From assembly GCA_030141605.1 (NCBI GenBank), contig JAQGDQ010002367.1, positions 930,001 to 994,000 on the forward strand: 64,000 nt of DNA. Direction: 5' to 3'. Position 1 is the stretch's first letter. Each line of letters opens with the position of its first letter. Made by a program: the position numbers and the translations under genes. The notes below the pieces were generated by a model. That model was not told where the DNA came from, did no database searches, and worked only from the letters and a program-made list of their open reading frames with translations. Shown one piece after another: positions 861 to 64,000 of this stretch. This stretch comes from Tubiluchus corallicola. Taxonomy: Eukaryota; Animalia; Priapulida.

Positions 861-1039
861 GTTACAGAGGCTGGGACTGCACTGATTCTAGTCACGCTTT
901 AACAGACGGTCAGCTCATAGCTAATACGTTACTACTTACATTGAGTAATTTGTTTTTCATACCAGCTGTGATACTAGCCATCTACAGGAAGTACTACACT
1001 GAAGCACTGGTTTACTTTGTCACCATGTTTTTCTCAACG
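861..1039 (+). CDS. TMEM8: TMEM8/PGAP6-family membrane protein, internal exon (end of EGF-like domain plus first TM helices); upstream exons lie outside the window
   Basis: ttttag|GT acceptor and ACG|gtaaga donor; encodes GYRGWDCTD...[14 protein letters not shown]...[13 protein letters not shown], matching the TMEM8 GW.CTD / LTLSNL.F.P signature. Confidence 0.92.
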
Positions 1040-2378: not shown

Positions 2379-2639
2379 TTCTACCATGCTTGTGACGAAG
2401 ATGTGTATTACTACTGCCTCATGCGATACACTGTCTTACAGTTCTGTGATTTCTATGCTTCAATCATGTCATTCTGGGTAACTCTAATTGCCATGGCCAA
2501 ACTCAACTGGACATTGCGGTCACTTTGTCACATGTTAGCGGCTATATGCATTGCCCTAGGTGTAGCGTATGACCGCACAGGTCTGTGGGTGTTTGTGGTA
2601 CCGGCTGGTGCTGGATTAGGAATTATGTTGACATCGTGG
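2379..2639 (+). CDS. TMEM8: TMEM8/PGAP6-family internal exon (CREST SxxxH and D motifs)
   Basis: tttcag|TTC...TGG|gtaagt, 87 codons, phase 0; FYHACD...LQFCDF...SFWVTLIAMA. Confidence 0.93.
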
Positions 2640-2971: not shown

Positions 2972-5665
2972 CATAGGTTAGTTAGGTCTTGTCTAGCCAT
3001 CACTCGGCATTCAGGTTACTTAGGCTTTGTCCAGCCATCAGTCTGTAGTTAGATCAGTTAGGCCTTGTTCAACTGTCAGTCGGCAGCTAGATCAGTTAGA
3101 CCTTGTCCACTCAGCAGTCAGGGTTCTTAGGCTTTGTCCAGCCATCAGTCGGCAGTTAGATCAGTTAGGCCTTGTCCAGCTATCAGTCGGCAGTTAGATC
3201 AGTTAGGCCTTGTTCAACAATCAGTCGGTAGCTAGATCAGTTAGGCTTTGTCCAGCCATCAGTCGGCAATTAGTTCAGTTAGGCCATGTCCACCCACCAC
3301 TCGGCATTCAGGTTACTTAGGCTTTGTCCAATCATCAATCTGCAGTTAGATCAGTTAGGCCTTGTTCAACAATCATTCGGCAGGTAGATCAGTTAGGCCT
3401 TGCCCAGCCATCAGTCAGCAGTTAGATCAGTTAGGCCTTGTTCAACAATCAGTCGGCAGCTAGATCAGTTAGGCTTTGTCCAGCCATCAGTCGGCAGTTA
3501 GTTCAGTTAGGCCATGTCCACCCACCACTCGGCATTCAGGTTACTTAGGCTTTGTCCAATCATCAATCTGCAGTTAGATCAGTTAGGCCTTGTTCAACAA
3601 TCATTCGGCAGGTAGATCAGTTAGGCCTTGCCCAGCCATCAGTCAGCAGTTAGATCAGTTAGGCCTTGTTCAACAATCAGTCGGTAGCTAGATCAGTTAG
3701 GCCTTGTGCAGCCGTCAGTCGGCAGCTAGGTCAGTTAGGCTTCGTCCAGCTATCAGTCGGCAGCTAGATCACTTAGGCCTTGTTCAACAATCAGTCAGCA
3801 GCTAGGTCAGTTAGGCTTTGTCCAGCCATCACTCAGCAGTTAGATCAGTTAGGCTTTGTCCAGCCATCAGTCGGCAGTTAGATCAGTTAGGCCTTGTTCA
3901 ACAATCTGTCAGCAGCTAGGTCAGTTAGGCTTTGTCCAGCCATCACTCAGCAGTTAGATCAGTTAGGCTTTGTCCAGCTATCAGTCGGCAGTTAGATCAG
4001 TTAGGCCTTGTTCAACAATCTGTCAGCAGCTAGATCAGTTAGGCTTTGTCCAGTCGGCAGCTAGATCAGTTAAGCCTTGTCCAACCATCACTCAGCAGTT
4101 AGATCAGTTAGGCTTTGTCCAGCCATCAGTCGGCAGCTAGATCAGTTGGCCTTGTCCAGCCCAGTCAGCAGTTAGATCAGTTAGGCCTTGTTCAACAATC
4201 TGTCAGCAGCTAGATCAGTTAGGCTTTGTCCAGTCATCAGTCGGCAGCTAGATCAGTTAGGCCTTGTCCAGCCATCAGTCGGCAGCTAGATCAGTTAGGC
4301 CTTGTCCAGCCATCAGTCGGCAGTTAGATCAGTTAGGCCTTGTCCAGCCATCAGTCGGCAGTTAGATCAGTTAGGCCTTGTCCAGCCATCAGTCAGCAGT
4401 TAGATCAGTTAGGCCTTGTTCAACAATCAGTCGGTAGCTAGATCAGTTAGGCTTTGTCCAGCCATCAGTCGACAATTAGTTCAGTTAGGCCATGTCCACC
4501 CACCACTCGGCATTCAGGTTACTTAGGCTTTGTCCAATCATCAATCTGCAGTTAGATCAGTTAGGCCTTGTTCAACACTCATTCGGCAGGTAGATCAGTT
4601 AGGCCTTGCCCAGCCATCAGTCAGCAGTTAGATCAGTTAGGCCTTGTTCAACAATCAGTCGGCAGCTAGATCAGTTAGGCTTTGTCCAGCCATCAGTCGG
4701 CAGTTAGTTCAGTTAGGCCATGTCCACCCACCACTCGGCATTCAGGTTACTTAGGCTTTGTCCAATCATCAATCTGCAGTTAGATCAGTTAGGCCTTGTT
4801 CAACAATCATTCGGCAGGTAGATCAGTTAGGCCTTGCCCAGCCATCAGTCAGCAGTTAGATCAGTTAGGCCTTGTTCAACAATCAGTCGGTAGCTAGATC
4901 AGTTAGGCCTTGTGCAGCCGTCAGTCGGCAGCTAGGTCAGTTAGGCTTTGTCCAGCTATCAGTCGGCAGCTAGATCACTTAGGCCTTGTTCAACAATCAG
5001 TCAGCAGCTAGGTCAGTTAGGCTTTGTCCAGCCATCACTCAGCAGTTAGATCAGTTAGGCTTTGTCCAGCCATCAGTCGGCAGTTAGATCAGTTAGGCCT
5101 TGTTCAACAATCTGTCAGCAGCTAGGTCAGTTAGGCTTTGTCCAGCCATCACTCAGCAGTTAGATCAGTTAGGCTTTGTCCAGCTATCAGTCGGCAGTTA
5201 GATCAGTTAGGCCTTGTTCAACAATCTGTCAGCAGCTAGATCAGTTAGGCTTTGTCCAGTCGGCAGCTAGATCAGTTAAGCCTTGTCCAACCATCACTCA
5301 GCAGTTAGATCAGTTAGGCTTTGTCCAGCCATCAGTCGGCAGCTAGATCAGTTGGCCTTGTCCAGTCAGCAGTTAGATCAGTTAGGCCTTGTTCAACAAT
5401 CTGTCAGCAGCTAGATCAGTTAGGCTTTGTCCAGCCATCAGTCGGCAGCTAGATCAGTTAGGCCTTGTCCAGCCATCAGTCGGCAGCTAGATCAGTTAGG
5501 CCTTGTCCAGCCATCAGTCGGCAGTTAGGTCAGTTAGGCTTTGTCCAGCCATCAGTCGGCAGTTAGATCAGTTAGGCCTTGTCCAGCCATCAGTCAGCAG
5601 TTAGGTCAGTTAGGCTTTGTCCAGCCATCAGTCGGCAGTTAGATCAGTTAGGCCTTTTCCAGCTA
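2972..5665. repeat. 38-bp minisatellite array (about 70 units) in a TMEM8 intron, with higher-order repeats
   Basis: Consensus AGTTAGATCAGTTAGGCCTTGTCCAGCCATCAGTCGGC; diagnostic variant AGGCCATGTCCACCCACCAC recurs at 3281, 3509, 4487 and 4715. Confidence 0.97.
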
Positions 5666-6643
5666 GTCATTTATTATCATAGTGACTAGGGTGTCACTTA
5701 AGTGCAGTGAATCGCACTTGTCTACAAGTTAGACCATAATGTTCTCCTAATGGATAATTACGTTAGTCATTCTCGTCAATCATGCACCAGAAAAACCATC
5801 TGGAAAGTTCCCTAATTCTTATTATAGGCACTTATGCAGCTAATGAAATGAGAGAAATTCTTTACTTTATTAGACAAAGTTAGACATTATATAGGGCAAA
5901 ACCCATTTTTTAAAAAAATAACGATCTTGACATTAACTATACTAAATGAATTGACAATTGAAATCATCATCCCTGGCTTAGAAGGACTTCACTTGAAATA
6001 GAACTTCACTTGACTTCACTTGACTATCAGCTAAGACTGGCTTGTCACTTTTAATGCACAAAGTTTTGACAAAGCTTTTGTTGTCTTCTTACCATCACAA
6101 TAAGTACTTGCTTACTTTAAATATGAGTCTATTATCTCTTTCTTGAACTGCTTCTATCCATTGTTTGATTTTGCCTTGTGTTTTGATCCTAGATGGCAGA
6201 AGTATTTTTCAAAAGTAAGAACACACTGAAGGAAGTTAGGCAATGTATCGTGCTCAAAAACGTCTAATAGTCAGGTCTGATTTGGGTCAAGCCTCAATCA
6301 AAGTCAAGTGTTACATTAAACTTCTTTTTTATATGCTACTTTAGTGGAAGGTGCTCTAAGAATCTCTCATCATTTTTGCGATGCATATGACCATTCATCC
6401 CCACAAATGACAAATTATTAAAAATCTTTGTTACTTTGCAAGAAACAATATTTCTTTTTTAACTGCGGGCTTTGAATATGTAAAGTAGATTCTGCATCTG
6501 TATGTATGTGGCATATGTATATGTATTATACTGAACACTGAAGAGCCTGAGTAATTACAGTAAATATATATATATATATACTCCTCTTATTGGCTACACA
6601 ATTTACTAAGATTTTTCATCAGTATATTGTGATGTTTTTACAG

Positions 6644-6934
6644 GGATTCAAGTGCTATAGGCAAAAGGCGTGCTATCCTAACCGATGTCAGTATTTGTTA
6701 CTTCTACCCGGTGTGGCACTAGCTGGTACTGGACTAATCATCTTCGCTTTTGTGGAGACTGAGAATAACTATCAGTATGTTCATAGCGCTTGGCACATTC
6801 TCATGGCCACCTGCATTCTCTTCATGCTTCCTGAGAACGATAAAAAGACGGTTGCTAGCAATCAATCGTCTGCCGAGGAGTTGACCGCCGACATCTCCAA
6901 TACGGACATGGCTAGTTTACTAGAGGATAAATGA
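6644..6934 (+). CDS. TMEM8: TMEM8/PGAP6-family last coding exon (HxxWH motif), ending at a leaky-context TGA
   Basis: ttacag|GGA acceptor, phase 0; CYP...LLPG...ETENNYQYVHSAWHILMA...LP; TGA at 6932-6934. Confidence 0.92.
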   Translation, partial: GFKCYRQKACYPNRCQYLLLLPGVALAGTGLIIFAFVETENNYQYVHSAWHILMATCILFMLPENDKKTVASNQSSAEELTADISNTDMASLLEDK

Positions 6935-7105
6935 CAATTAGTTGAATATAGGCCCCTTAGACATAGTCACAGTTCAGCGCTGACAATGGTTGCTGGTACA
7001 AGTCAATCAGACATGGCTGATACGAACCGAAACAGTGCTGACACTGATGTTGTAAGCTTGACCATTTCTCTTCCCATTGACAATAATGTAGTGGGAGAGT
7101 CTTAG
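6935..7105 (+). other. Candidate stop-codon readthrough extension of TMEM8 (56 sense codons, then TAG)
   Basis: TGA-CAA-TTA context; open in-frame QLVEYRPLRHSHSSALTMVAGTSQSDMADTNRNSADTDVVSLTISLPIDNNVVGES*; 14-bp stem 6943-6956/7162-7175. Confidence 0.7.
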
Positions 7106-7430
7106 TCAGTAGTCAAGGCTATTTCAATAACCAGCTTAATACAAGAGGTAAGATCTTGTTTGGGGCCTATATTCACAATTAGGAATGTAAATTTAGGAAA
7201 TAAATTCAATTATGTGAATAATCAGTCTGTAGTAAAGAATCAGTTGTAATAGCTGAGATATTTTTATCAGAGGTGTTATGCAATCATGTGTTTTTGCATA
7301 TGCAATTTTACTATTGTTGTGGTGGCAGACTGGCTTACACAGTCATGTGTTAATTAGCAATTTAAAAAAACATAAATTTTATCATTAATTCAAAAGTCAA
7401 GTAACAAGTTGAATGCTAGTGATTTTAATG

Positions 7431-7592
7431 GTGCCTTTAGATGTAGCGACTTCTTTCGCAATCTCTCTGAGAGTAAAGTTGCAACATGTGAAAGATTTGG
7501 CAACTTGTTGCAACATGTGAACGGCTTGGCAACTTCTCACAGAGGGAAGTTGTGCAACAAGCTGCGAGAGAAGTCTCTACCTCTGAACACGC
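7431..7592. mobile_element. Small palindromic MITE-like element in the presumed TMEM8 3' UTR
   Basis: Imperfect inverted repeat TTAGATGTAGCGACTTCTTTCGCA vs reverse complement TCAGAGGTAGAGACTTCTCTCGCA; internal GTTGCAACATGTGAA duplicated. Confidence 0.55.
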
Positions 7593-8997
7593 TATAAACT
7601 TTACTGTTTTCACACACAGTTTTTTTTAGTGTTAACTGAGCTTATAAAAATAATTCCTCAGAGAATTGCAGCACTTGTAAAATTCTACGGAACGTTTAGT
7701 TGGTTTTGTTTTTTTGTTTTTTTTTGTTGGCAGTGTAAGCTTACTAACATTAGTATTCAGAACTTCACTTGCTCCTTTTAAGAATAAATCTTGTATATAC
7801 AATTTACTGTATATATTGTACATAAAAACATTCAAACATTTTAACTGCGATCATACTCATGATTACGTTTTATGCCAAAGAAGCGAAAAATATGCTAAAC
7901 CGTCTTGCCCACTGCCAAATTATTTAAATTGTTGTGTTCAGATAGTACACATGCTGTCAACTTTGCAATTTTGCCAAATTTTATTGTAAGTTTAATAAAC
8001 CTGTAGCCAAATTAGAAATCACAAATCATAATTTTTCCAGTCCAGTGGTACATTTTAAAGAGAAATAATATGGATATGATGAAGCTTCCATATCTTTCTA
8101 ATGTATAAAAACACTGCCAGTCAAAATTGTGAACTAGTCATCCTTACAAAGGTCTAATGATAGTGCTGGAAAACTTACCTTAAGTTTTTTATTAATCAAT
8201 CAGAGTATCAAATTAGATGTGGGCATGCATGCATGATAAGTATGCATATTTGTTGAGTAGTTATTAATGAATAATGAATAGGTGATGCTTATGATTCAGA
8301 TAAGTTTATACAATTCAATTAGACACGCTTTTTTGTGCAAGAACTCATTAAGGTCTTAGTGTATTCTTGAACTTATTTTGCAGATTCTTTTACATCTAAT
8401 GCTATATGTATAACAAAGAGATTATACTTAAAATTTGAAATCATTGTAGACATACTTTATTTAACATTATACAGTCATTTATACCTAGCATTTGTGGTGC
8501 TATTTCAGAAAAATCATTTTGCTGTTTTTTTTCATAATTTTTTTCTACCACAGTTTATAACCCATATAGAAAACACTTCCTTGCAGCAACATGAAGTTAG
8601 ATTATATGTTGTGCGTGTGGATTTTCACACTCAGATTTTTAGACTTTTCTATGTCATGCAGCTAAGGATGTAGCTTTTATTAAAAGTTACTGACATTAAA
8701 TAATCTAATGATTTTCTGTTCTGATTGCACTGCCTGTTACGAAATCACTGTTTTGCTTTGTTATTTAAAAATAGCTTTTTTTAAGATGAATGAGTCAAAA
8801 CGTACGTTCCTTGGGATGTTTCTCATTTTATTTTGACTAGCCCTCTAGTCAGTGCAATTCCCACTTTAAAAATGTGTTTTTTGTTTTTATATCTGAGATG
8901 AATTCATGTCTTGAAAGCTTCCTGTGGACAACTTTGCACAGTTAATTTACAGTTATCAAAACATTGTCATCTTTTTTCATCACTATTGTCAATATTG

Positions 8998-9023
8998 TCA
9001 TCATCATCATCATCATCATCATC
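8998..9023. repeat. (TCA)n microsatellite
   Basis: Direct reading of tcatcatca... run. Confidence 0.9.
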
Positions 9024-12000
9024 AATGAAACTGCTACCAAAGATTTGTGTATTAGGTCTCTTAACTGAGTTTTGGCTTCAAAGAAAACTTTGTACACGAG
9101 AGAGCTAATTGTAGTCAAGTATATTTGTTATATTTTAGGCAATCGTTTCGTTTAGATATTTTTTACTTTAACACTATTTAGTTAATAAATGAAGATTATT
9201 TATGTTACCCCTACATACCTTTCTTTATTTTGTACTATTATTGATTTTGTGTCAATTACAGCAAGTACACGTCACTTATTTGCATTAAACTATTTAAGTT
9301 TATAAGTTTAATATCAGTTTTTGCTTTTACAAGCTCCTCCTTCTTAGCCTTACTACTGTTATGCACAGGAAAAGATGCAGCCCTTGTTTGCTACATTGTT
9401 GCTCACATGTGATCATGCACATGCAAATTAGTGTTGTCTTTTTGGAGTGCTTTATAATATAATAACAGTCTTGTATTAATGAATACGTACATTCCAATGT
9501 ATTGTTTGTCTTCTACAGTCTACATTTTATTACTTGCTGAAATTAAGACCTATCAGTTATATTAGTGTGTCTGACACTTTTGTTGTGACATTTTTGTTTC
9601 CACAACTCATCGTATTGTATTTTTTGTTATTCTTCCCTGATTCGTTACTTCACAACCACCGTACACACAAAACAGAATCAGAAATTTTCTATATACTGCT
9701 AACAAAATTATAAAAATTTAATGGAATTTCAACTAGTCTGGCATGAAAAAATGAGATCATTTTACATAGGTTAGTTACATTGTGATTAATAACTTTGTGA
9801 ACTCAACAAATGAGATCTGTTTGTGTAATAGGCCTATATGTTTAGCTCAATTATAATAATAGGTTGCACGTTTATGAATTCTTTTAAACTAATTATTATA
9901 CATTATAATACTTTGATGCACAATCGTTTTTTCATTATGGTAATAACTTGTGTAAAAGTGTGAAAGACTGAATGTTTGTATATACATGTAAGTGCAATAC
10001 ATGAACTTAAAAAGTAAAGAACTTTTGTTTACTTAATAAGTTAGTCAGTTAAAATGGGCAGTGACTGTCCATGTCATGATTGTGTTTAAGCTTTGAATGC
10101 ATTATAGTCTTTCATGGTATACATACATGTATTAATTTATAGTAGTCAACTGTAACTATTTTCGAATGGTTAAATTACGTTGTTTCAATATAAAATGTTT
10201 TTGTGCAATATAAAAGGGCGTTCGAATCCCATGTGCAGAATACCTTTTTTCATCGTAAAGAATAGGTATCATTGAACGTTTAGTTCTACTACTCGTGTTA
10301 TAGAAAATTTATTACCTATGGCTGTATCGTAACATTTTTTGAATGTCTGCGTGTTAATAAAGTAGTCTATATAAATTTGATAAATCATAACTTTTGATTA
10401 GTGCTACTTTACTATCTAAATCAGAGATCGTGAGCAGTATTTTCAAATGAATTTAACGTGAAAGAAGCTGTAACTCAGTAATTAATCATATTAATTACAG
10501 ATTCTTTCATCATTAAAAGAATATAATAAAAAGGGTGTGGCGAGGAAGTCGTGAAAAGCTCACTTCTGATACCTTTCTAATGTCAAACATAGAACGTTAC
10601 GCTGTCCAACAGCGCTTTGTAATGTCCCCCATCATTATTGCACATGGGAGCACAGTCAGGTAACATAACTCCCTAGGCCTTGGTCTCTAAACATATTCAA
10701 AGATTTCAATTAGAGTGATACGTACTAAGCACATTTAATACCTAGTTCACACGGTTTTTTCAAAAGATTGACATTCAAAGCACTGATTATGTGTACACGA
10801 TCAGTTTTCACTGATAATTACGTATACTTTCAAATAACTATTTGTCGAAGGGGTGTTCTTTAACTTTTTATCATTTCCGAAATAGCGTCAAAAGACCAAA
10901 ACAGCTTGTATGAAAACGAGCTTTGTTTTAGCTTATGCTTGCAAAGCGAAATCAAAGAAAAAAGACTTCAGCAAAGAAACGAAACAAGAAATTAGCATCA
11001 AATTTTGGGAACTAAAAGCAAAAGCACAAACGAATTTTAATTATATTGGGATAACACAAAGTAATTACTGGACAAATTTCACCTCTAAATAAAGCGAAAG
11101 GAATAGATTGTCAAGGCACCATAGCGTGCAAGTTAGTCGCCGAAGTACAACAGGTCTATAAAATGTACACTCACGAAAATTTCGGCACTCACGCACTTAC
11201 AAAATGTAATTTATGCAGTAGCTTTTTGTTAATAATTCATTGTTTTTTTGTGACATTGCACTTTACACAACCGTTATCAAAGGGCTCTTTTAGCCGAGTC
11301 ACCAGCCCGCATTAATGTTACCTGTTCATTCCGAAAATTTATGACGGACACTGACGAAAATCAAGACCAGTTTGATTAAAATTTTACTGTCATTCTTGGT
11401 GTCCACGCGGCCACTTCAACCCTGACAAACTCGAGAATGACTGTTTTGAATGACCGTGAAGACGGCCTATTAATACTCTGGGTCTACCATACTTTATAAA
11501 GCAACCTATATCTGAAATAATTATGAGAGAGAGAGAGCTCTCCTGAGACTTTTTTAAATATAAAAACGTATAAATAACGACCTGTTATTACCCACCCGAC
11601 TGATATGTGGGTAGGGTGTTTAGCCGCGTTTGTGTGTTTGACTATCTGTCCACAAAATGAGCTCAATGAAACAGATGAAGCGTTAAAGCTGGAACAGAGA
11701 TAGATCTAAAGTGGTCAAATATTCGGCTCGCAAGTCAAACAATTTCAAAATAAAAAAAATTTCTATTTCATGCGAAGACGTGGGTCAATGAATCCATTTT
11801 AGTTTTTACATGAAGGGTTGAATGCCTTCGGTTTAGACAAATAACAAAGCAGAATAAACACTGTCTTTTTCTTCCCTTTATTAAAAGAGGAAAGGAAACA
11901 CAGTTTATATACTATTTTTATTTATTTTTAGTCACGTCTGAAACCTCATTGTAAGACACTAGACTCATTTAAGTGGTAATTAAAAAAAGTTGTATACTAA

Positions 12001-40838: not shown

Positions 40839-40855
40839 GTAAGATTTTCATTATA

Positions 40856-41350
40856 CAGTGGCCGCCGCTTATTGTGGACACCTCGGGCCAGCAGTGTATG
40901 TCCATATTAAGCGGCTGTCCATATTAAGCGAAGTGACCCATGAAGACCCTTCCCCTTCATTAAAAAAGGCAAAAAACTGTCTGTATCTACTCGTCTCCTG
41001 TTTTATTGAAAAAAAGAAATCAGACGAGTTTGTTTGGCAGGAAACTTTTCTCTCAACCTTGAACGGAAGGAAGTTATCACAGTTTCGAAGCTCTCAAGGC
41101 CACGGCAAACGGCGAACTGACTGATGCAATGACTCACACAGGCAGCAGAGCGGGAAGCTCTTTTCAATCATGCGCGCAGGCCGTGGTTGGCACGGCTTGT
41201 CACGTGCCAAGAATGTTCGCTGTCCATATTAAGTGGCGGTTGTCCATATTAACCGGCGGATTTTATTAGGGGAAAATTCCGTCCCTCGCGAGTTGTCCAC
41301 AATAACCGGCTGTCCACAATAACCGTGTCCATAATAAGCGGCGGCCACTG
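40856..41350. mobile_element. Tc1/mariner (pogo/Tigger-like) MITE, 495 bp
   Basis: 26-bp TIR CAGTGGCCGCCGCTTATTRTGGACAC with one mismatch; TA target duplication on both sides; subterminal TGTCCATATTAA/TGTCCACAATAA repeats. Confidence 0.93.
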
Positions 41351-41429
41351 TACTATCAATAAGTGCATCAGATGTTTCGTGTAACAGAGACATGCAAGTC
41401 TCACCTTTGAGGATTATTAAGTTTTGAAT

Positions 41430-43365: not shown

Positions 43366-44174
43366 AAAGCGCGGTCTCATTAGCTTTATTTAGTAGACAG
43401 TATTGAAGATAAGTGTTAATTAGAGCATAATAGGTTAGTTTTTCAGTTTCAGTATCCTTAGTTTCGATGTGTTACTGAGTTTGTATGCAATATTTTTTGC
43501 TTGCGTGACCAAGATATTTTACTGAGTTAACTTGTGCTATTTGATTATTATTTAAATTAATTTTGAAATCTATATTAACATTTCTTTTAGTAACGATCAT
43601 GTTTTTGGTTTTCTTATAATTTACAGAGTTTATTTGCATGCATTCAGGTATCTATTTTTACCAATTCTTCTGTTGTTTGAAGTCTGTGGGATTAAGGTTA
43701 CGGTTACGTTAAGTTAGAGTATTTAAATCGGTTGGCGAATTGTAACTGGAAGATATATATTATCTACAACTAATCTCACAACGTACAGCCATTTTAGTGG
43801 TGAACTGAAAAGCTAAAGCAGTTTTGTTAGTGCATAAATCACTGGCATATTAAAAATATATATTGTTTTCAGAATAAGCTTGTTTATAATCATTTTTCTG
43901 AACTATTGACACATACTGAAGTTGTGGGTCTCTGGTGTGTATTATTCAGCTTTTTAAATTTTCTTCTATTGTCGTGACCCTTTCAAACAAGTAAATTGTA
44001 CAGATGCTTTTGAGCATACTTCAGATTTTACTGATTTTCCCTTTTAACAGTTTATATCATTATTGCACAGTTAAATTACATCTTGATGTTTAAACATGTG
44101 AAAGTCTTATGTGTAAGCAAAATGTACGGTTTGCTTTGTATTTCTTCTATATAATCATTTTGGATGTTATACAG

Positions 44175-44366
44175 AGATTTGGGGATCGAGGTATTCGTTA
44201 TATCGCAGAAGGCTGTCCAAAGCTAGAATTCTTGTGTATATCTGGTTGCTTCAATCTATCTGACTTGTCGCTAATCTCAATTAGTCAAGGTTGTCCAAAA
44301 CTAAAGACCTTAGAAGTTGCCAACTGCTCACAGTTTTCTGATATGGGCTTCCAAGCTTTGGCAAAG
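44175..44366 (+). CDS. FBXL20: FBXL2/FBXL20 LRR exon
   Basis: RFGDRGIRYIAEGCPKLEFLCISGC...LEVANCSQFSDMGFQALAK; 64 codons, phase 0/0. Confidence 0.95.
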
Positions 44367-44558
44367 GTAAAGAGTATTTCTTCAAATTGAAGTTGGTTGA
44401 AATTGGAATTAGCAACCTGAAAATTGTTTCTCATTTAAATGATTGTACCCTGCCAACTTTACACTGAAGCTGACCTGGGCGATATCAGAGAAATTATGAA
44501 AACTTTTGTCTAGTAATTGGCAGACATATAAACTGATATTTAGCATTAGACTTTCAAC

Positions 44559-54749: not shown

Positions 54750-57700
54750 ACAACTGATACATACTCAAGCTTTGGCCGAACCAGTTTTTTATACAGTGTT
54801 GGTTATACCAATATCCAGGAAAAAGGCTGTTGATATTTGTGCTAAACGTAATACTTTGATGTGCCCTGCAGTTTAACTTCTACAGAAATTGCTAGTTGAA
54901 TTGCTTGTGATATTTGTAAAAATAGTGGCATAAAGTTTGTGCACTTATGTTCTTACAAAGATTTGGTGAAGTATAAAAAATATAAAATTGATTTTGTTTG
55001 TGCTATTTGTGTTCCTGGTAGAAAGTCATCTAACAAGGAGCCGGATTCACAGGATACAAGTGACATCGTTCAATCTTGCGAAAATAAACTTGACCATTTG
55101 ATTTCTGTTCTCTTTGAAAATTTTAGCTGTATAGCAGACATTTCTTCTAATAGTTCTAGTGGCAGCAGTAGTTACTCTAGTGGCAATGGCAATCTTATTT
55201 CATCAAGTAATGCTAAGAACTTTTATAAAAATTGTTGTGTTTATAGTTTAGACAGAATTGTAGTTGTAAATAAAGTTGATGACCTTTGTGCCTTTAAAAA
55301 CAGTGCTGCTATAATAAAAGAATTGAAGAAGATTCCTTACATCTCCCAAAAAGTTGAATTGGCACATAGCTTAGCTGGTGGAGGTATTGCCCTTTATACT
55401 CATTAGGGTGAATCTGCTTCAGATATCATCAGTCACTGGCCTCGAGGTCAAGTGTATGGTAGTTCAGTTGTAGTCCGTCTGCCAAAGCGTGCTGATCCTA
55501 ACGCAAAATCTAATGTTTGTTACATTAAAAATGTACCTAGAGACAATTACTGGGATAATAATTGTGCAGCAGCTAAAAAAATCTTAATTTTCATCGGAAA
55601 AAGTTTCATGAGCGAAATCTTCCCCAGAACAAATTTAAATTGTTGGAAGCAGAAGTATGTTTTACTTACGCAATTGACATTGCTCTCCTGTTTTTGAGGA
55701 TTCTTGAGAAATTTGATATTCTTCAAAATTGTTTTTTGATGTAAAGCATATCTGCCAAAGAAATTTTGATGATAGTTTCAAAAGAAATGTTGAGGAAAAG
55801 CTAGCTTCAAAAGATGTTTGTCCAGCAAGGTCTGGAATTCATTGTTCTTTTGCACTAAAGGAGTATATAATGCAATTAGCCACTTGAAGGCAAGTAAATC
55901 ACCTGGTCCTGATGAATATCCTCCTGGGTTATTTATACACTGTGGGAGCAATTTGAAGCACATATTATTGAAGAGTTTTAAGTCATGGACCAATAGAATT
56001 CTACAGACAGCTTGGACTTGTGCAAATGTTAAGTTCATCAGGAAACAAGGCAAGGATGACTATTATGTACCCTCTTTTTATTGTCGTATTAACTTGACAT
56101 CATTCATTTGTAAAATTATGGTAAGATTAGTACTTTTTAAATTAAATACGGCAATTGATACATATAATATAATAATACTGATACACAACAAGATGGTTTT
56201 AGGAAGTTCTGTTCTATAATTCACCCTGTTTACGACTTTGTACAAACTATATGTGATGGCTTTAATAATGCTAATCAAACAGTAGCTTGTTTCTTGGATT
56301 TGGAGAAAGATTATGACCGTGTATGGCGAGATGGACTTCCTATCAAGATATATAATGTTCGCATTGCTGGCAGATTACAGTATGGATTAAAGGTTTCTTA
56401 TCAAACAGACATGCTAGACATCTGATTAATGGCTATCAAGGGCCAGTATTGCTTCTTCTAAGGGATTACCAAAAGTGAGTGTTATTTCAGCATCTTTATT
56501 CAACATTTTCATAGCTGAAATATGTTCAAGTCTGTACAGGAAAATCATTGCAAGCATGCAGATGATGGTACTTTATGGCACACTGATTCAGGTGTCATCA
56601 GTCTAGCTTCATTAGTTTGTTCTGATGTGGAACATATTATTAACTGGCGTTCTTTATGGCATATGTCACTTAATTTAAGTAAAACTGAAGTTACTGTGTT
56701 TAGTAGAGTTCCTAATATACTACCTAGTAATTCTCCTTTTTGTGTTTATAATGTGTTGTTAGAGCAAAATCAATTTCCAAAGCTACTTGGCATAACCCTA
56801 GATAAGAAATTAACCTTTCATCCCCCACACTGTCAAACTATGAATGAAAGCTAGCAAAGTTCCTTCAGTCGTTAGAGAAATAAGAGGTATTGTTAATATT
56901 TCAACTTTGTATAAATAAATGCCTTGTTTGTTCATTGATGAAATATGGTGTCATATAGTTAAACGCAAGGCTTTGTCTTTATGTCTTGATCTCCCTTCGA
57001 CTGCTGGTGTTGAAGTATTGGAGGTTGTTAGTAGTGTACCTCTGTTACAGAGCTTGCAAAAATTGAATCAAAACCACTATCTAATCCTCTGAAACAACAA
57101 CTAGAAGATTTTAAAGCAGTTGGTTTGGGTAATATCAGATTTGTTTCTCTTAAGGCAAAAGCTGCTTCTTTGGCATGGGAGGTGGAGAAGAACTGGAATG
57201 CTATTATTTCTCAAGTGGTTCCGGCAGTTGATTTCGATCTAAATGACAATTTTACAGATATTCCTGTGGCTAAACCTAACTATTGGAATGTACTAGGATC
57301 CTCAAACAATAGGTCAGAGAAGCACAAGAACTTCTTGGGAAAGCCTTTGTTATAAATTCTTTATGCAGTCTTTCAGATAATGCTGTTTTAGCATTTACAG
57401 ATGGTTCTTGTACAGACAATCCTGAACAATGTGGAACAGGAGCAGTAATTTATTCAAATATTCACAATTAATCTTTGTAGCTACAGATACTAAAAATGTT
57501 ACAGTTTTTTCAGATAGTAAATCTTCAGTAGCATTGTATCTTTAGGATGATCTTGTAACTGTTACGAAGATCTACATGACAGCATAAAAATTATGTTAAA
57601 TTTCATTATAGTATTGATATTCATGTTAACTTCTTTGTATAGATTCTTGGACATCGTAATATTATTAGAAATGATCTTACTGATTCCTTCACTAAAAGGG

Positions 57701-61952: not shown

Positions 61953-62636
61953 CTACATAAGATCCGGGAACAAGTCTGAAAAAGACTCTTGCCAAGCTTC
62001 TTCATCAGTAGCTGGGGATGCTGCACTTACAGGTGAGCCAAGATCACTTTCACCTGTGCTATACCCAGATTCCGAAGACGTGTTGGGCGACTTGCCATGT
62101 ATTCCAGGCGTGTTTAAAGGTGAACACGAAGACAACATATTATCCCATATGCTGGGATTGTAGTGCGTATTAACCTTTAATGGAGTGTTAATATCGGTTG
62201 ATAGTTCACTACGAATTCCTTCAATACCGGTACAGGATACATTAGAAAATCCACCAGATTGCAGAAAAGAATCAAACTCACTAAGATCAAGATCCATTAA
62301 TTCTGAAAAATCATCAGTTGATGGCAAAGTATTGCCAAGTTCTGTGTATTCTGTAAGAGAATTTCCTCTATAAAGTACATCGACTTCTGAAGAAGTGTCT
62401 TTGTTAGCACTATAATTATCATTAGTGCAACTGATATCCTGATCGACAATGGAAACACTTTCCGCTTCTGTTTTTACTTCTTCTTCATGATCAATTGAAG
62501 TGAGCTCATCGGCATTTTCAGCCTTGTAGTAAATGTGGTCGAATCTTATGAATTCATTGATGGCGTCCACATTCTTTGGTGTGCTCCCCACCATTTTATG
62601 ATTGGATTTAAAACGCTTGTCTTCAACTTTGGCATT
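61953..62636 (-). CDS. XBP1: XBP1 last exon, spliced (XBP1s) frame: acidic transactivation domain
   Basis: tttcag|AAT acceptor; INEFIRFDHIYYK, SESGYSTGES, WQESFSDLFPDLM* are XBP1s signatures; in frame with the upstream exon only after removal of the 23-nt intron. Confidence 0.96.
   Translation of the reverse strand, partial: NAKVEDKRFKSNHKMVGSTPKNVDAINEFIRFDHIYYKAENADELTSIDHEEEVKTEAESVSIVDQDISCTNDNYSANKDTSSEVDVLYRGNSLTEYTELGNTLPSTDDFSELMDLDLSEFDSFLQSGGFSNVSCTGIEGIRSELSTDINTPLKVNTHYNPSIWDNMLSSCSPLNTPGIHGKSPNTSSESGYSTGESDLGSPVSAASPATDEEAWQESFSDLFPDLM
62546..62636 (-). CDS. XBP1: XBP1 unspliced (XBP1u) frame C-terminus, arrest-peptide-like
   Basis: Overlapping frame reads MPKLKTSVLNPIIKWWGAHQRMWTPSMNS* (TAA 62546-62548). 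Confidence 0.85.
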
Positions 62637-62951
62637 CTGAAATAAAAATGATTTATAAATATCTTGCTAAATTGAAACACTCAACGTAACAGTAAAAGTA
62701 GAATCTTAAAATCCAGATACAAAAACTTTGCCGTCACGCACACTTCTACATGTGTATTTGTGCACAAGAAATTTATTAAAAATAGCTAAGACAACAGCTG
62801 ACATTCAACAAGTCCTTCAGTTTTCTTAAAAATTTAAACAGCCTGACTCCTGACAAATTTAAACTGATCATACAGTATGTCAAAAATGAACGCAATACGG
62901 ATTTTACAAATATATCTTTTACAGTTTTAAGAGATAAAATCGCCAACAAAC

Positions 62952-63256
62952 CTGCTCTGACTGTTCAACTTCATCATCCGTTTCAGACGAAAGTCCGTCA
63001 ACGATGAAGGATAAGAGATCTCGCTCAGTACAATCAGGAACAGAAACGTTACTGAAAATGCCATCCAATGAGAGACTGCACGAGCCTGCTCCTGCTGCAG
63101 AGGAAGCATTTTGAATACTGCGGATTCAACTGACTCGTCCTTTCTCTCACTGGGGACATCATCTACACCCAAACGCTTCTTCAGTATTGCGTTTTCACCA
63201 CGCAGCAACTTAACTTCGTCTGTAAGTGCTTTGTTGTCAGACTGTAATGATCGATT
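62952..63256 (-). CDS. XBP1: XBP1 exon: end of leucine zipper, IRE1 splice region, HR2; basic-region exons lie beyond the window end
   Basis: acag|AAT ... CAG|gtttgt; NRSLQSDNKALTDEVKLLRGENAILKKRLG...ESAVFKMLPLQQEQ. Confidence 0.95.
63098..63120 (-). other. 23-nt unconventional IRE1-excised intron of XBP1
   Basis: CCG^CAGTATTCAAAATGCTTCCTCTG^CAGC; two hairpins with 7-nt CNG^CNGN loops (TTGAAT/ATTCAA and TCCT/AGGA stems). Confidence 0.95.
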
Positions 63257-64000
63257 CTGTAAAAATAAATTAAAGAGAGTTTATAGATAAAAGAAAAAAC
63301 CTAAAAATTGCAAAAAATACAGTAAACTATATATAACTCCAACTGGTATAACAGAATTCTTGCGCATCTCGAACAGATACTCGTGGAACAAATTTTTTTC
63401 CTTTAACAAGCAACTCGAAATCTCTAACTGAAACCGAAATCCCGGTCCAATTCTTAAGAATCTGATTGAAATTGCCTCGCTTATCTCGAACAGCCTCCCA
63501 AGCAAGAAGTCCTACGCAAAAGTGTGCACCACATTATGCTAGTTTCAGCAAAAATGCTAAAATTTCTTGTATTACCTTAGCAGAGCATTGCAAACACCAC
63601 GGCTCAACGAACGTGGTTTAATGTAGATCACAATATTGTTATTGCAAAATTGTTAAAACCATGCTACTCAGACTACAATAAAGGTGGGTCAGTCATTTTA
63701 TTTTTGGTTTGTGTTAGGTATTTGATTAAAGGCTTAGTTTGTCACTTTCGCAGGCTGTAGTGTTACTAGTGTATTGTCCGACACTGATGAATGACTCAGT
63801 CTTGTTTTCTTACGAACATCGTCTTACTCGTACTTTCGCATAACTCAAACAAATTTTCCGGTCCCGAGGTGTTTAAGTTAAACGTAGCTTACTGTAGTGA
63901 TCAGTTTAGCTCTTTTAAATTCAACTTTTGTGATGTTTTGACCAATTTACTCCGAGTCAATTGTCAGATGTGATAATGTCATAACGAAAAAATCAGCTAA

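Follow-up and report, generated by a model that had tools for sequence, protein, structure and literature searches.

Two classes of readthrough signals bear on the locus described here, the CARYYA hexamer directly behind the stop codon and a long-range stem beginning a few nucleotides further downstream. The stem type is represented by kelch, where the UGA codon is followed by an 8-nt spacer and a 14-bp stem closing a loop of 268 nt (Firth 2011, PMC3159437), and by VEEV, whose stem is described in the same report as lying behind a spacer of 8–9 nt (PMC3159437). Placing the hexamer CAA-UUA before the VEEV stem resulted in 10.1% readthrough in cells (PMC3159437), and for Drosophila dfr, moving the stem by 3 nt is reported to lower readthrough (PMC13170385). 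According to the survey of Jungreis 2016, structures predicted by RNAz follow 9–10% of insect readthrough candidates vs. less than 1% of other stop codons, and abundant readthrough is reported there only for the Pancrustacea (PMC5100048). The same survey already contains a candidate from the TMEM8 family, namely AGAP002672 of Anopheles gambiae, which appears in row 76 of Supplemental Data S1, a high-scoring preliminary list, with TAG-C and 101 codons, an empty RNAz column and an "ambiguous" fly orthologue (PMC5100048). Because CG13654, the fly orthologue of AGAP002672, belongs to the TMEM8 family, the suggestion of the initial annotation that no readthrough had been described for TMEM8/PGAP6 had to be given up: readthrough has been predicted in print for a mosquito member, so it is not new to the family. 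A literature search combining readthrough with TMEM8, PGAP6 or CG13654 yielded no dedicated study.

The window analyzed here, a stretch of 64,000 nucleotides from the priapulid Tubiluchus corallicola, contains the 3'-terminal part of a TMEM8/PGAP6-family gene, at whose UGA stop codon programmed readthrough, adding 57 residues to the protein, is probable from the features of the sequence. Three exons of the gene are visible, and the upstream exons coding for the N-terminal part lie outside the window:

861..1039, plus strand: coding exon of the TMEM8/PGAP6-family gene, with AG/GT ends and a match to PF12036 at E 7.9e-12.
2379..2639, plus strand: coding exon which finishes the CREST motif SxxxH and holds the conserved Asp, matching PF12036 at E 1e-23.
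6644..6931, plus strand: coding part of the last exon, comprising the HxxxH motif and the tail at the C-terminus, recognized by its reading frame and PF12036.

The assignment to TMEM8/PGAP6 and the CREST family, already made in the initial annotation, was confirmed by all three visible exons exceeding the Pfam cut-off for PF12036 (DUF3522). The last exon starts at 6644 in phase 0 after exon 2379–2639, behind a T-rich AG acceptor, and the three-exon translation contains the H3-S-D catalytic residues, with SxxxH at position 59, Asp at 84 and HxxxH at 194. PF12036 and the three His, the Ser and the Asp are common to this gene and to mammalian PGAP6/TMEM8A and TMEM8B, which are described as CREST hydrolases (PMC5147002, PMC13562381), whereas the gene product here is a putative enzyme with candidate GPI-phospholipase A2 activity whose N-terminal exons lie beyond the window. 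The nearest proteins to the three-exon product are TMEM8/PGAP6 proteins of chelicerates, myriapods, bivalves and crustaceans, with long 8A/8B-like proteins, a type set apart from myomaker by a large N-terminal ectodomain containing an EGF-like domain, as best matches, and exon 2379–2639 reaches at most 69% identity to chelicerate TMEM8. In a protein tree of 36 rows, for which 33 rows of the larger set had been omitted for speed, the Tubiluchus protein fell into a polytomy. The AU test marginally rejected that it belongs to the main insect-crustacean clade of TMEM8 proteins (p 0.04), while a second arthropod paralogue group (p 0.30) and the molluscs (p 0.11) were not rejected as partners.

A 38-bp satellite of 71.5 copies (2980–5663) is located in the last TMEM8 intron. 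Elsewhere in the window, we observed a gene at 61953–63280 on the minus strand which we take from its motifs to be XBP1-like. It contains two CNGCAG loops at 63123 and 63100, 23 nt apart, which are predicted to fold like the twin hairpin of an IRE1-spliced 23-nt intron, its last exon ends with the tight stop TAG-TAA, and a search with it returned one relative at 77%. An exon at 44094–44390 on the plus strand presumably codes for leucine-rich repeats of the FBXL type, and broken open reading frames at 54900–57355 on the plus strand presumably derive from a non-LTR retrotransposon. MITE-like inverted repeats are present at 363–763 and 40854–41352, with arms of 19 and 20 bp, respectively.

The features around the end of the TMEM8/PGAP6 gene are the following:

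6905..6922, plus strand: D-x-x-x-L-L motif of the acidic dileucine type with a putative role in sorting, separated from the stop by 3 residues.
6932..6934, plus strand: TGA, the first stop codon, which follows AAA and is also present in the contigs of runs X3 and X5.
6935..6942, plus strand: 8-nt spacer with the CARYYA hexamer (6935–6940), equal to the left copy of an 8-nt direct repeat.
6935..7102, plus strand: candidate readthrough extension of 56 codons, recognized by its frame and by 4 of 5 listed changes being synonymous.
6943..6956, plus strand: 5' arm of the 14-bp long-range stem, an inverted repeat with predicted pairing.
7103..7105, plus strand: second stop codon TAG; indels of the X5 contigs begin behind 7107.
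7162..7175, plus strand: 3' arm of the stem, an inverted repeat 205 nt from the 5' arm.
7176..7183, plus strand: right copy of the direct repeat of 8 nt, matching 6935–6942 at 7 of 8 positions.
7199..7204, plus strand: first AATAAA to follow the stop, a putative poly(A) signal located beyond the 3' arm.

The sequence AAA-TGA-CAATTA at 6929–6940 and the following 56 sense codons up to the TAG were exactly as claimed from the first inspection of the sequence. The frame of the last exon ends with LLEDK before the TGA, and the two other frames are closed. With 50 residues from the HSxWH motif to the TGA, the tail is close to the median of 234 homologues (55.5 residues), and the TGA is in register with their C-terminal ends. 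An assembly error at the TGA was ruled out by a contig from run X3 (study P2) covering 6855–7057 with no difference; the comparisons with X3 and X5 were made with contigs instead of raw reads, and the window may itself derive from runs X1 and X2. The end of the gene was not covered by contigs of run X2, nor the stop codon by those of run X6. The chance of a CARYYA hexamer is about 0.002, and an open frame of 56 or more codons follows 3.6% of the starts in the window and 6.6% of those in the UTR downstream, and was present in 2.9% of shuffled sequences. Taken alone, hexamer and open frame are weak evidence, and their recurrence by chance is expected in a genome-scale scan. The coding-like composition ascribed to the extension was found for overall GC content (43.5% vs. 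45.8% in the tail and 31% in the next 168 nt) but not for third-position GC, which was UTR-like (0.34 vs. 0.56 in the tail). Its likeness to the Ser/Thr/Asp-rich tail was borne out by a combined fraction of these residues of 0.34 vs. 0.38. No Pfam family matched the extension (6935–7102). An origin of the extension by duplication of the tail received no support (shuffle P 0.27) and was dismissed.

A perfect 14-bp inverted repeat links 6943–6956 with 7162–7175, the 5' arm beginning 8 nt after the TGA; stems of the kelch and alphavirus type consist of about 12 or more bp starting 7–9 nt after the stop codon. Pairing probabilities of 0.91–1.0 were predicted for 13 of the 14 pairs in four folds of 246–551 nt, and the predicted cost of forcing the 5' arm open was 12.9 kcal/mol. 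When arms had to begin between +5 and +16 of a given point, 13 bp were reached in none of 5000 dinucleotide shuffles and 14 bp at only 3 of 9932 sampled positions of the window (satellite and stop locus left out). The local fold of 6925–7125 was unremarkable (z −1.67), because the 3' arm lies outside this span. Part of the 3' arm may also pair with 7208–7220 in a local hairpin at 7170–7220 (−11.5 kcal/mol), which could compete with the long-range stem, and a third CAATTA is present at 7207. A contig from run X6, which we guess to be derived from RNA (depth 48, 16 differences), covers only the 3' UTR at 7173–7336 and no coding sequence, and shows a loose end resembling its own start.

In comparison with the described systems, the locus resembles kelch in its UGA codon, the 8-nt spacer and a 14-bp stem over a long loop, which spans 205 nt in Tubiluchus. 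It differs in the context of the stop codon, which is UGA-AUG in kelch and CARYYA in Tubiluchus, and in the position of the 3' arm, located past the second stop in untranslated sequence; moreover, the kelch system is backed by 12 species and the Tubiluchus cassette by one diverged contig. The CAA-UUA hexamer is identical to that of the tobamovirus stop-CARYYA type, and the stem at an 8–9-nt spacer recalls those of the alphaviruses VEEV and Sindbis (PMC3159437). As presented by Firth et al., stems occur mostly in cassettes without CAR-YYA and the two signals were combined in a reporter, whereas the Tubiluchus gene has both (PMC3159437). A plant-virus-like context at +4 to +9 together with a distance-sensitive stem is likewise described for Drosophila dfr/vvl, but there the stop codon is UAG and the stem a compact local hairpin (+9 to +59) with experimental proof, whereas the Tubiluchus stem is long-range and predicted (PMC13170385). 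With mosquito AGAP002672, the Tubiluchus gene shares family membership and predicted readthrough. Since the tail of the dipteran proteins comprises about 26 residues after HSxWH vs. 50 in the Tubiluchus protein, the two gains of readthrough would probably be independent.

Signs of selection on the extension came from a contig of run X5, which originates from another study and covers 6675–7069 at a depth of 6.2 with 18 differences and no gap. This contig retains the TGA context, and there is no listed change between 6905 and 6966. Based on the 15 listed of the 18 differences, all 10 changes in the coding sequence and 4 of the 5 changes in the extension are synonymous, corresponding to a pS of 0.18 vs. 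a pN of 0.013 over 6935–7034 (Fisher P 0.008). A type-matched placement test of the synonymous bias gave a P of 0.021, and P values over all tests ranged from 0.008 to 0.03, for a signal consisting of five changes in one low-depth contig. The second stop lies near a contig end and may be conserved. In the worst case, with the three remaining differences all non-synonymous and in the extension, P would be 0.08; these differences presumably lie near the contig ends. A second X5 contig (7087–7221, depth 3.2) carries insertions behind 7107 and 7150, with four listed substitutions in 7106–7161 and one in 7162–7221. The X5 substitution at 7166 in the 3' arm changes a G-C to a G-U pair and shifts the duplex from −31.5 to −30.2 kcal/mol, and 27 of the 28 arm positions are free of listed changes, with no compensatory double change in the one relative compared. 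A preserved frame, indels only after the TAG and preserved pairing are the pattern predicted by readthrough, as seen in this one low-depth comparison.

With respect to the conservation among orthologues that had been proposed as a check, X5 keeps the stop context with mostly synonymous changes, and the signal is absent from the distant loci sampled. None of 79 related loci (28–64% identity) contains a stop-CARYYA, their longest arm measures 10 bp and their longest extension 50 codons; many of these loci are duplicates or apparently run into an intron, so that in some cases the true stop is probably not the first one in frame, and the set comprises insect-like loci and no close relative. A HMMER protein search gave 287 matches, of which the best 150 all ended at or before query residue 112, and the extension had no meaningful match. 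A word-based search with the read-through exon gave none among 681 candidates, and an exact 24-nt scan of metagenome contigs gave no match. As far as sampled, the cassette appears to be limited to its lineage, and deep conservation is either absent or unsampled.

The case for readthrough is made by the stem and the X5 contig, both of which are absent from the initial annotation. Its interpretation as programmed readthrough is supported by the stem at the 8-nt spacer and the synonymous bias in X5, but the hexamer-only mechanism it offered is incomplete, because the signal would consist of the hexamer plus the long-range stem. By analogy with known cassettes, the ribosome would most likely stall at the UGA while its mRNA channel holds CAAUUA and the stem is positioned at the channel entrance, the release factor would sometimes lose to a near-cognate tRNA, and translation would continue to the UAG, lengthening the C-terminal tail by 57 residues. 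Extrapolating from the viral reporter with the identical hexamer and a stem, readthrough would occur at a rate between a few percent and about 10%.

Mouse PGAP6 is reported to have a cytosolic C-terminal tail (PMC5147002). Of 120 full-length homologues, 11 carry a D-x-x-x-L-L motif at a distance of 1–7 residues from their end, and those of them that are named come from arthropods. One arthropod TMEM8 paralogue group carries such a dileucine-type C-terminus (P0006, P0017, P0019, P0041, P0043, P0055, P0057, P0058, P0060, P0064 and P0066), which may possibly act as a sorting signal. The extension contains no hydrophobic or transmembrane stretch (maximum KD19 0.69), and a YxxL motif at 6947–6958 is encoded by the 5' arm. 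Readthrough would therefore yield a longer cytosolic tail in which the dileucine-type signal is moved off the end and a YxxL motif is added. Our best guess is that the extension alters trafficking rather than catalysis, a step which is weak because such short motifs are common by chance.

The stem arms are flanked by the 8-nt direct repeat in the manner of a target-site duplication, a match with a P of about 0.001 for random local 8-mers, and none of the 18 other listed inverted repeats in the window exceeds a 4/8 flanking match; the 14-bp arms would also qualify as the terminal inverted repeats of a MITE/TIR element. Part of the direct repeat is equally readable as a bulged extension of the stem, AATT being palindromic. 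An old 233-bp terminal-inverted-repeat element (6943–7175) might thus lie behind the stop codon by coincidence, with hexamer and open frame due to chance or to a non-selected leak. While such an element would explain the stem, the higher GC content and the direct repeat, and hexamer and open frame do recur by chance in a large scan, we regard a mere coincidence as unlikely. The 64-kb window contains no second copy of the arm or the interior, although old diverged copies elsewhere in the genome are possible, and 6943–7175 appears to be single-copy in the X3 and X5 contigs, whereas 7440–7600 is present at hundreds or thousands of copies. Moreover, the GC content drops at the TAG (from 44% to 34%) and not only at the end of the element, indels avoid the frame, changes are mostly synonymous, and the window-based null for the stem already contains transposon-type repeats. 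We know of no transposon terminus that fits the arm ends. The highly repeated sequence at 7440–7600 is interspersed, has an internal tandem unit of 29 nt and lies in the probable 3' region of the gene. An origin by insertion and a present function are compatible, so both may hold for the cassette. It is conceivable, if rather doubtful, that a terminal-inverted-repeat element landed behind an already leaky stop and built the whole cassette in one step, in which case the target-site duplication would have become the spacer, the terminal repeats the stem and the interior the selected 56-codon extension. A literature search for a transposon origin of readthrough stems found nothing relevant.

Coding of the extension without readthrough would also account for the synonymous bias if an in-frame intron removed the TGA in an alternative transcript, and 20 frame-keeping GT..AG pairs span the stop. 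Their candidate donors (GTCTGC, GTTGAC, GTTTAC, GTTGCT), however, do not have the GTAAG form seen at the real donors of the gene, the candidate acceptors lack the T-rich tracts of its real acceptors, and neither the hexamer nor the position of the stem would be explained, which makes such an intron very improbable. We attach equally little probability to A-to-I editing of the UGA into a Trp codon. A long duplex is predicted with the stop at its base and with the A of the UGA paired at a probability of 0.5, but ADAR favours a 5' G neighbour least of all contexts, the firm helix starts 8 nt downstream of the stop, as fits a readthrough stimulator, and the hexamer is again left unexplained. That the TGA codes for selenocysteine, or is a nonsense allele which recently shortened an ancestrally longer protein, is hardly credible. 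An in-frame UGA with structure downstream would be in line with these readings, and 12 of 234 homologue tails extend 100 or more residues from the HSxWH motif, but an Rfam search of 6600–12000 gave no SECIS match at E values up to 5, and neither of two SECIS pattern hits from a manual scan formed a helix. A recent nonsense allele is unlikely because the 50-residue tail matches the homologues in length and in the register of its dileucine motif and because the TGA is kept in both X3 and X5, the latter at a pS of about 0.2.

If readthrough at this UGA is real, a cellular gene would carry both classes of signal, the CARYYA hexamer and the long-range stem, in one compact cassette. If the transposon-born reading is true, programmed readthrough would have a transposon origin in an invertebrate that probably does not belong to the insect-crustacean group, and the flanking direct repeat makes such an origin of the stem testable in a few related genomes. 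For the TMEM8 family, real readthrough in Tubiluchus would mean that it arose twice on the C-terminal tail, in mosquito and in Tubiluchus, pointing to an unstudied regulatory role of this tail.
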